NCBI GenBank assembly: GCA_035994985.1
Contig: DASYKZ010000013.1
Location: forward strand, 1,834 to 65,833
Source of the DNA: Minisyncoccota bacterium
Lineage (GTDB): Bacteria > Patescibacteriota > Minisyncoccia > Phycocordibacterales > UBA9973
Reading direction: 5' to 3'
Length of the DNA: 64,000 bases
The stretch's first letter is position 1. Every line of letters begins with the position of its first letter. The position numbers and the translations under genes were made by a program. Of this stretch, positions 28,297 to 29,430 are shown one piece after another. The notes under the pieces are model-generated. The model saw only the letters and a program-made list of their open reading frames with translations. It made no database searches and had not been told where the DNA came from.

Positions 28297-28324
28297 AACC
28301 TTATTTAAAAAAGATACATAGGTT

Positions 28325-28376
28325 ACTTGTCAATTACTTGACAATTAAATATAGATTGGTTTACAATTGGTTTACA
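28325..28376 (+). promoter_or_regulatory. operator-like repeats upstream of island gene: imperfect inverted repeat ACTTGTCAA/TTGACAAT plus tandem perfect 11-mer ATTGGTTTACA x2
   Basis: 28355-28365 and 28366-28376 identical; TACAAT -10-like element embedded. Confidence 0.45.
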
Positions 28377-28380
28377 ATCT

Positions 28381-29430
28381 ATGTTAACAAAAACCGAAAT
28401 ATTAAAAATAGCGAAAGAGAAGGATAAACTTTACTCTAAGGATTTAGTGTTGCAGTTTAAGGTCTCTAGGCAATATGTTAATCTTTTGATATCCATGCTA
28501 GTCGGAGAGCGTAAACTTGTAAAAATCGGCTCTACAAGAAAAGCATTTTACGTTCTTCCTGAATACGCACAAAAACATCAAGAAATATTTCCGCTTATAT
28601 ATTCTAAATCATTTAAAAATGAGGGACTTGAAGAGCATAGAGTTATAAGTCAAATAGAAGAGACTTTCCCGACATTAAAAAATCTTCCAGAAAACATACG
28701 TAGTATTTTTACCTATGCGTTTTCAGAAATGTTTAACAATGCAATTGAGCACTCCAAATCTGTGCGTATAGGGGTAGAAGTATCTATCCCTAAAAAAGAA
28801 CTTTCTTTCATTATACAAGACTCAGGCATAGGCGTTTTTCGTAACGTTATGAAGGAGCGAGGTCTAAAGTCTGAAATAGAAGCAATTCAAGATATTTTAA
28901 AAGGAAAGACGACAACTATGCCCAAATCTCATTCAGGTGAAGGTATATTTTTTACGTCAAAGTCTGGAGATGTTTTTATTCTCGATAGTTTTGGTTATCA
29001 ATTAATTGTAAATAATAAGACACCAGATGTTTTCATAAAGACTGTTAGAAAAATAAAAAGAGGCACTCGGGTAATGTTTAAAATCTCTGCTTTATCAGAT
29101 AGACATTTACAAGATGTTTTTAAAAAATATACAAACCTAGATGATAAAAGTGATTATGGTTTTGACAAGACGGAAATAAGAGTGAAACTTTATACTATTG
29201 GCGGTGTCCATATTTCTCGTTCACAAGCACGGCGAGTCTTAGACGGTCTTGAAAAATTCAAGATAATTGTTTTTGATTTTGAGCAAGTTTCTACGGTAGG
29301 ACAGGCATTTGCTGATGAAGTTTTTAGAGTTTTTCATCATAAATATCCAAAGATTAAGCTTGAAGTAGAAAATATGAATGAGGGGGTAAAATTTATGATT
29401 GAAAGAGCACAGAATGAAGCTTCCATATAA
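28381..29430 (+). CDS. wHTH - GHKL (histidine-kinase-like) ATPase - STAS-like (DUF4325-like) fusion protein
   Basis: N-box FNNAIEHS, G1 DSGIGV, G2 GEGIFF; C-terminal STAS-like segment; N-terminal winged helix. Confidence 0.6.
   Translation: MLTKTEILKIAKEKDKLYSKDLVLQFKVSRQYVNLLISMLVGERKLVKIGSTRKAFYVLPEYAQKHQEIFPLIYSKSFKNEGLEEHRVISQIEETFPTLKNLPENIRSIFTYAFSEMFNNAIEHSKSVRIGVEVSIPKKELSFIIQDSGIGVFRNVMKERGLKSEIEAIQDILKGKTTTMPKSHSGEGIFFTSKSGDVFILDSFGYQLIVNNKTPDVFIKTVRKIKRGTRVMFKISALSDRHLQDVFKKYTNLDDKSDYGFDKTEIRVKLYTIGGVHISRSQARRVLDGLEKFKIIVFDFEQVSTVGQAFADEVFRVFHHKYPKIKLEVENMNEGVKFMIERAQNEASI

Follow-up and report, generated by a model that had tools for sequence, protein, structure and literature searches.

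The locus described here raises the question of what a gene does when it joins a DNA-binding domain, a kinase-like fold and an antagonist-like domain in a single reading frame at the head of an R-M island. It lies in a window of 64 kb, the whole stretch of DNA that was analysed. From its position, the initial annotation had taken it for a sensor or regulator of the island or for a stand-alone defence or abortive-infection component, and had described the protein as uncharacterised. The latter description is apt, as no functional study of the family was found in the literature (DUF4325/PF14213; STAS and HATPase with defence; partner-switching with anti-phage).

Gene and domain architecture

The gene and its parts are laid out as follows.

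28381 to 29430, plus strand: ORF of the family gene, 349 aa, ATG start
28322 to 29430, plus strand: complete conserved cassette (operator/promoter and ORF including the stop codon), delimited by information content per nucleotide
28381 to 28578, plus strand: winged helix-turn-helix (wHTH) domain, aa 1-66, with the recognition helix at about S29-R30-Q31-Y-V
28579 to 29130, plus strand: SpoIIAB/RsbW-type GHKL ATP-binding (kinase/anti-sigma-like) domain, aa 67-250
29170 to 29427, plus strand: DUF4325 domain with a STAS fold, aa 264-349

The start at 28325 in the initial annotation takes in the upstream repeats; the ORF itself runs from 28381.

That wHTH, GHKL and STAS-like domains are combined in one chain, as originally proposed, is almost certain. 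The C-terminal domain is recognised by Pfam as DUF4325 (PF14213, 'STAS-like domain of unknown function'; aa 282-336, E = 4e-15, 55.7 bits against a gathering cut-off of 23), and PF14213 is present in all listed homologues of the protein. The HATPase_c and HATPase_c_2 models score below their Pfam cut-offs on the window protein (22.2 bits against 26.4 and 21.1 against 27.4, respectively), and these cut-offs are passed by many homologues in precomputed annotation. The window protein carries the hallmarks of a GHKL/Bergerat ATPase, namely the fold, the N-box Glu and Asn, the G1 DxGxG motif and the glycine-rich G2 lid. The residues concerned are E116, N120 and H124 in the N-box and D147, G149 and G151 in G1, together with the lid KGKTTT..HS and G2 GEGIFF. 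The motifs FNNAIEHS (aa 118-125), DSGIGV (aa 147-152) and GEGIFF (aa 186-191) lie where the initial annotation had put them, and are invariant in a family alignment of 60 sequences. A single-sequence search found no relatives with solved structures, and a family profile gave at most weak matches to DesK, SpoIIAB and MarR.

The STAS-like domain is the most conserved part of the protein. It has the STAS fold of the SpoIIAA/RsbV antagonists, and its motifs SRSQA(R/K)R and FDF...GQ.FA are both invariant. The second of these contains an invariant Gly307-Gln308, of which Q308 opens a helix (N-cap) after the FDF strand, as judged by secondary structure. We take G307-Q308 to be the position of the SpoIIAA/RsbV phospho-serine, on an alignment by eye to the DSSG motif of SpoIIAA. 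No phosphorylatable Ser or Thr stands at the helix N-cap after strand beta-3, where DSSG would place it; Gly-Gln is found there instead, and the domain is thus unlikely to be a conventional substrate or antagonist. The earlier description, in which an RsbW-like kinase is joined to an RsbV-like and a DNA-binding domain, is therefore apt as a description of parts, but not in the sense of a conventional antagonist.

Upstream repeats and promoter

The region 5′ of the ATG contains boxes of the form TTGWCAAT.

28327 to 28334, plus strand: box 1, TTGTCAAT, 54 nt 5′ of the ATG
28338 to 28345, plus strand: box 2, TTGACAAT, 11 bp on from box 1, with TTGACA as predicted -35
28349 to 28355, plus strand: ATATAGA core in the empty phase slot between boxes 2 and 3, conserved in the 60-locus alignment
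28360 to 28367, plus strand: box 3, TTTACAAT, 22 bp after box 2; includes the predicted -10, TACAAT (28362-28367)
28371 to 28378, plus strand: box 4, TTTACAAT, 11 bp after box 3; spans the expected transcription start and ends 2 nt 5′ of the ATG

The inverted repeat and the perfect tandem 11-mer over the -10 to which the initial annotation drew attention are both real. The tandem, two copies of ATTGGTTTACA at 28355-28376, is the sole perfect tandem 11-mer in the 64-kb window, against a mean of 0.02 in Markov-1 simulations. The inverted repeat TTACTTGTCAA / TTGACAATTAA at 28323-28348 is open to an equally good reading as a direct repeat phased at 11 bp, GTTACTTGTCAATT / ATTACTTGACAATT. A sigma-70 scan returned TTGACA (28338), an 18-nt spacer and TACAAT (ending at 28367), with 11 of 12 positions matching, which places the -10 in the first copy of the 11-mer. 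The ATATAGA core may supply the -10 to a second possible promoter, TTGTCA (28327)-17 nt-TATAGA. With spacings of 11, 22 and 11 bp, boxes 1 to 4 would face the same side of the double helix. The ATG at 28381 is not preceded by a visible Shine-Dalgarno sequence, and the leader, which is presumably short or absent, has no Rfam match.

Conservation of the operator and its link to the recognition helix

A 48-bp promoter/operator with 11-bp-phased TTGWCAAT boxes is conserved in 60 of 67 homologous loci. The conserved stretch opens some 4 nt 5′ of box 1 and does not extend past the stop codon: information content per nucleotide is 0.11 bits on the upstream side of box 1, rises to 1.28 bits over boxes 1-3 and is 0.0 beyond the ORF. 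Box starts cluster at -51, -40 and -18, with a spacing of 11 bp in 74 cases and of 22 bp in 63. At the position homologous to box 1, about -51, most loci have kept TTGACAAT; box 2 reaches about 2 bits per position over the 60 loci, and a fourth box is found in some homologues only. The -35 and -10 hexamers fall within boxes 2 and 3, respectively, and part of the conservation of these boxes could be driven by the promoter alone.

The paired boxes are closely tied to the gene, with 75 of the 77 pairs in 888 kb of homologous loci lying between -250 and +60 of a family gene start. Neither the 64-kb window nor the 888 kb of flanks (about 0.9 Mb, all near family genes) yielded a second paired-box site. 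Among divergent members, 11 of 33 have other phased 8-mer repeats, compared with 5.8% of control upstream regions. The type of repeat varies with the recognition helix: (S/T)RQ(A/Y)V goes with TTGACAAT, SLNTxYRY with TATAGTTAA, N(Q/R)NTVH with CGAATAAC and SRAHISAQ with AGTAGCAAGT. The promoter of the gene therefore appears to contain a cognate operator whose sequence evolves together with the DNA-binding domain. Since the operator is kept in 60 of 67 loci and clade-specific repeats co-vary with the recognition helix, autorepression is well supported on comparative grounds; the family gene most probably represses its own promoter, in keeping with the tight autoregulation suggested earlier. At the other end of the cassette, the lack of sequence conservation past the stop codon leaves no conserved terminator, and a stable hairpin with a T-run follows the gene in 17 of 75 loci.

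Genomic neighbourhood

An all-against-all BLASTP comparison of the genes within ±6 positions of the family gene resolved 546 neighbours into 460 clusters, the largest of them present in 6 of 77 loci. No conserved small ORF lies within 700 nt of the gene. Tightly linked genes downstream on the same strand at other loci encode products as varied as YchF, malic enzyme, an SDR, a P-type ATPase, HsdR, HsdM and MazF. Most chromosomal loci of the family have ordinary housekeeping flanks. Elsewhere three distinct arrangements place the gene within type I R-M operons, and it is also found at prophage accessory-gene ("moron") sites beside terminase or tail genes, and, in three of five proteobacterial-type contexts, adjacent to BrnTA or HigBA-like toxin-antitoxin pairs and transposases. 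The initial annotation had proposed a test for enrichment of homologues near defence genes. R-M genes within ±3 genes are found in only 5 of 77 loci, a weak enrichment relative to far flanks (Fisher p = 0.07) to which we give little weight.

The annotation had also named sigma-B-type partner-switch operons as an example of the housekeeping contexts that, if predominant, would speak against it; no conserved sigma-factor or PP2C neighbour was seen. Sigma70 and SpoIIE families are absent from the recurrent neighbour families, a single ECF sigma/anti-sigma pair lying about 3 kb away on the opposite strand at one locus (L257). The linked sigma-factor and PP2C genes of a canonical partner-switching locus are accordingly missing. 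Among PADLOC-DB v2 defence models there was no significant match, the sole match being to CARF7--CARF_RelE (E = 0.012, 12.4 bits).

Nor do the loci resemble those of R-M controllers or of BrxR/CapW, which have a conserved place 5′ of a cognate operon with operators there. The adjoining orf208 recurs elsewhere with a convergent methyltransferase and without the family gene; searches of Pfam, NCBIfam, PADLOC, PHROG and the PDB returned nothing for it, nor did tblastn against phage and plasmid reference collections. With no conserved neighbour, varied downstream genes and an orf208/methyltransferase pair that exists without it, the family gene does not qualify as the regulator of the R-M island, and the role read from its position at the island's head is not supported. 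Very probably it is an independent single-gene cassette, functionally separate from the adjoining R-M genes.

Distribution and mobility

Clustered at 50% identity, the family falls into at least 656 groups, nearly all of about 350 aa, and its members number in the thousands. They are frequent in the candidate phyla radiation (CPR, Patescibacteria), and others come from Proteobacteria, Cyanobacteria, Chloroflexota and prophages. The window protein is more similar to members from Margulisiibacteriota (71% identity) and Dehalococcoidales (64-66%) than to those of some CPR lineages, such as Microgenomates (48%), which argues for horizontal transfer. Full-length relatives were found on 45 IMG/VR viral contigs, beside TerS/TerL/portal genes, tail genes and integrases; INPHARED phages and PLSDB plasmids gave no tblastn match for the protein. 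As a possible sign of integration, tRNA or tmRNA genes adjoin 4 of 60 loci, a count that does not clearly exceed expectation.

This distribution over moron sites, type I R-M operons and toxin-antitoxin/transposase islets, without synteny, may fit a gene of phage-host or mobile-element conflict, a reading to which we give somewhat less than even confidence. Against it stands the identity of 60-86% across CPR classes, which is unusually high for a conflict gene and is greatest in the STAS-like domain, the part that would serve as sensor. The lack of matches in PADLOC, INPHARED and PLSDB and the housekeeping flanks of most chromosomal loci also count against it.

Comparison with known systems

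SpoIIAB-SpoIIAA and RsbW-RsbV are pairs of an anti-sigma serine kinase and a STAS antagonist; here the corresponding domains share one chain with a wHTH, the phospho-serine is replaced by an invariant Gln, and a mobile gene without a linked sigma factor or PP2C phosphatase takes the place of an operon. Mycobacterium tuberculosis Rv1364c is likewise a fusion (RsbU-RsbW-RsbV) and has a phosphorylatable STAS serine. It contains PAS and PP2C domains and no DNA-binding domain, whereas the family protein has a wHTH and neither phosphatase nor acceptor serine. The SiaB-SiaC switch of Pseudomonas aeruginosa, a kinase with a STAS-like DUF1987 partner, consists of two proteins, of which SiaC is phosphorylated, and their operon also encodes a phosphatase and a diguanylate cyclase. 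The family protein, by comparison, is a single chain with DNA binding as its predicted output, and no enzyme genes are linked to it.

Similar in genetic organisation are autorepressed conflict modules of one or two genes with an HTH (HipBA and HTH-fused HipA-like kinases, AbiEi/AbiEii) and the wHTH regulators of defence islands (BrxR/CapW), in which a wHTH or HTH acts on repeats in its own promoter and which are mobile, occurring in toxin-antitoxin-rich or R-M-rich contexts and in prophages. In contrast to these, the kinase fold here is GHKL rather than HipA or Hanks type, and there is no partner gene, no WYL domain and no controlled downstream defence operon. The combination of a winged helix with repeats one helical turn apart over the -35 recalls OmpR/PhoB-type regulators, whose winged helices bind direct repeats phased at 10-11 bp, an analogy of site geometry only, as the family protein lacks a receiver domain and its wHTH is MarR/ArsR-like and N-terminal.

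A proposed mechanism

We favour, with about even confidence, the view that the gene is a horizontally moving, autonomous one-gene cassette encoding an autorepressed single-chain partner switch. A sigma-70-type promoter under four TTGWCAAT boxes would drive synthesis of the 349-aa wHTH-GHKL-STAS protein, which may dimerise through its SpoIIAB-like domain as SpoIIAB does. Its wHTH domains would then occupy the phased boxes across the -35, the -10 and the start site and shut off their own promoter, and on the comparative data this autorepression should keep the protein at a low and fixed level. The GHKL domain probably binds ATP, all ATP-binding residues being invariant, and may contact the STAS-like domain of the same chain or the same dimer.

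As Gly-Gln replaces the phospho-acceptor serine, we propose that the STAS-like domain acts as a non-consumable pseudo-substrate. By analogy with SpoIIAB-SpoIIAA, one polypeptide could thus hold a partner switch that depends on nucleotide state (ATP/ADP) or on another signal. In the switched state, and here we speculate, the freed kinase/anti-sigma-like domain might phosphorylate or sequester a target while repression is lifted. A conflict or defence role is entertained tentatively, and the pseudo-substrate switch more tentatively still. A fuller version, which we consider somewhat unlikely, would make the family a very widespread conflict system made up of one gene, serving anti-phage defence, abortive infection or the exclusion of superinfecting phages. 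In it a kinase held by the STAS pseudo-substrate is freed by a conserved infection or energy signal and phosphorylates or sequesters a core component of host or phage transcription, the gene being carried as a phage moron and exchanged among CPR bacteria.

Alternative explanations

The protein might instead be a one-component transcription factor with a housekeeping or stress function, such as a sensor of ATP/ADP or energy state, with its regulon elsewhere and its self-site serving autoregulation only. SpoIIAB/RsbW switches respond to the ATP/ADP ratio, and very high conservation and fixed length across thousands of members, housekeeping flanks at many loci and a STAS-like domain conserved as if for a conserved ligand or an intramolecular contact all point this way. 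We nevertheless judge it unlikely: the paired boxes have no second site in the DNA covered, synteny is lacking even among CPR genomes, the gene is found as a prophage moron and within R-M operons, and its similarity pattern departs from phylogeny. A single-chain, toxin-antitoxin-like addiction module, in which a toxic GHKL kinase is restrained in cis by the STAS-like domain and limited in transcription by the wHTH, can be likened to HTH-fused HipA-type kinases, and would account for the tight autorepression architecture and for surroundings rich in toxin-antitoxin pairs and transposases. Stand-alone DUF4325 genes are reported to be transcriptionally coupled to PIN (VapC-like) genes (PMC5499597), and a Francisella prophage encodes, beside CI and an integrase, a protein of 293 aa and, directly after it, a DUF4325 protein of 112 aa (PMC7924643), possibly a split version of the family protein. 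A match of phrog_3364 to the wHTH and GHKL part also counts in favour. The labile-antitoxin logic is, however, absent from a fused protein, which makes such a module quite unlikely. We also know of no RsbW/SpoIIAB-type kinase that acts as a toxin.

A further alternative concerns what the upstream boxes serve. If they were promoter elements only, duplicated -35-like and -10-like hexamers that bind no protein of the family, the TTGACA in box 2, the TACAAT in box 3 and their 18-nt spacing would be explained, as would the occurrence of the exact pattern TTGACAATNNNTTGACAAT in at least 120 unrelated viral contigs. None of these matches lies beside a family gene, and the scan is for that reason uninformative as to a regulon. 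Yet conservation and 11-bp phasing extend beyond the core promoter to box 1 and, in loci that have it, to box 4, and the phased repeats of divergent clades are unlike promoter hexamers and co-vary with the recognition helix, so that we hold this explanation to be very unlikely. Lastly, the gene might control the R-M or defence genes next to it, as a C-protein or a BrxR/CapW-type head-of-island regulator would. This is suggested by its place at the left edge of two R-M units and by the start of orf208 17 nt past its stop codon with no terminator between. The downstream gene is nevertheless different at essentially every locus, orf208 and the methyltransferase recur without the family gene, and in the window and the 888 kb of flanks the boxes are confined to the family gene's own promoter. 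Such a controller is largely refuted on these grounds, and we regard it as barely tenable.

Implications

Partner switching between a GHKL serine kinase and a STAS antagonist is a textbook example of multi-protein logic. In the autonomous cassette that we favour, this logic would be held in one chain, and the switch would travel with a DNA-binding domain and its own operator as a mobile cassette of 1.1 kb. The regulatory repertoire of CPR bacteria is small and poorly understood. With the operator defined at base resolution and co-varying with the recognition helix, the family is directly open to experiment. Should its output prove to be defence or host take-over, it would represent a new kinase-based single-gene system; if not, it would represent a new class of nucleotide-gated one-component regulators.

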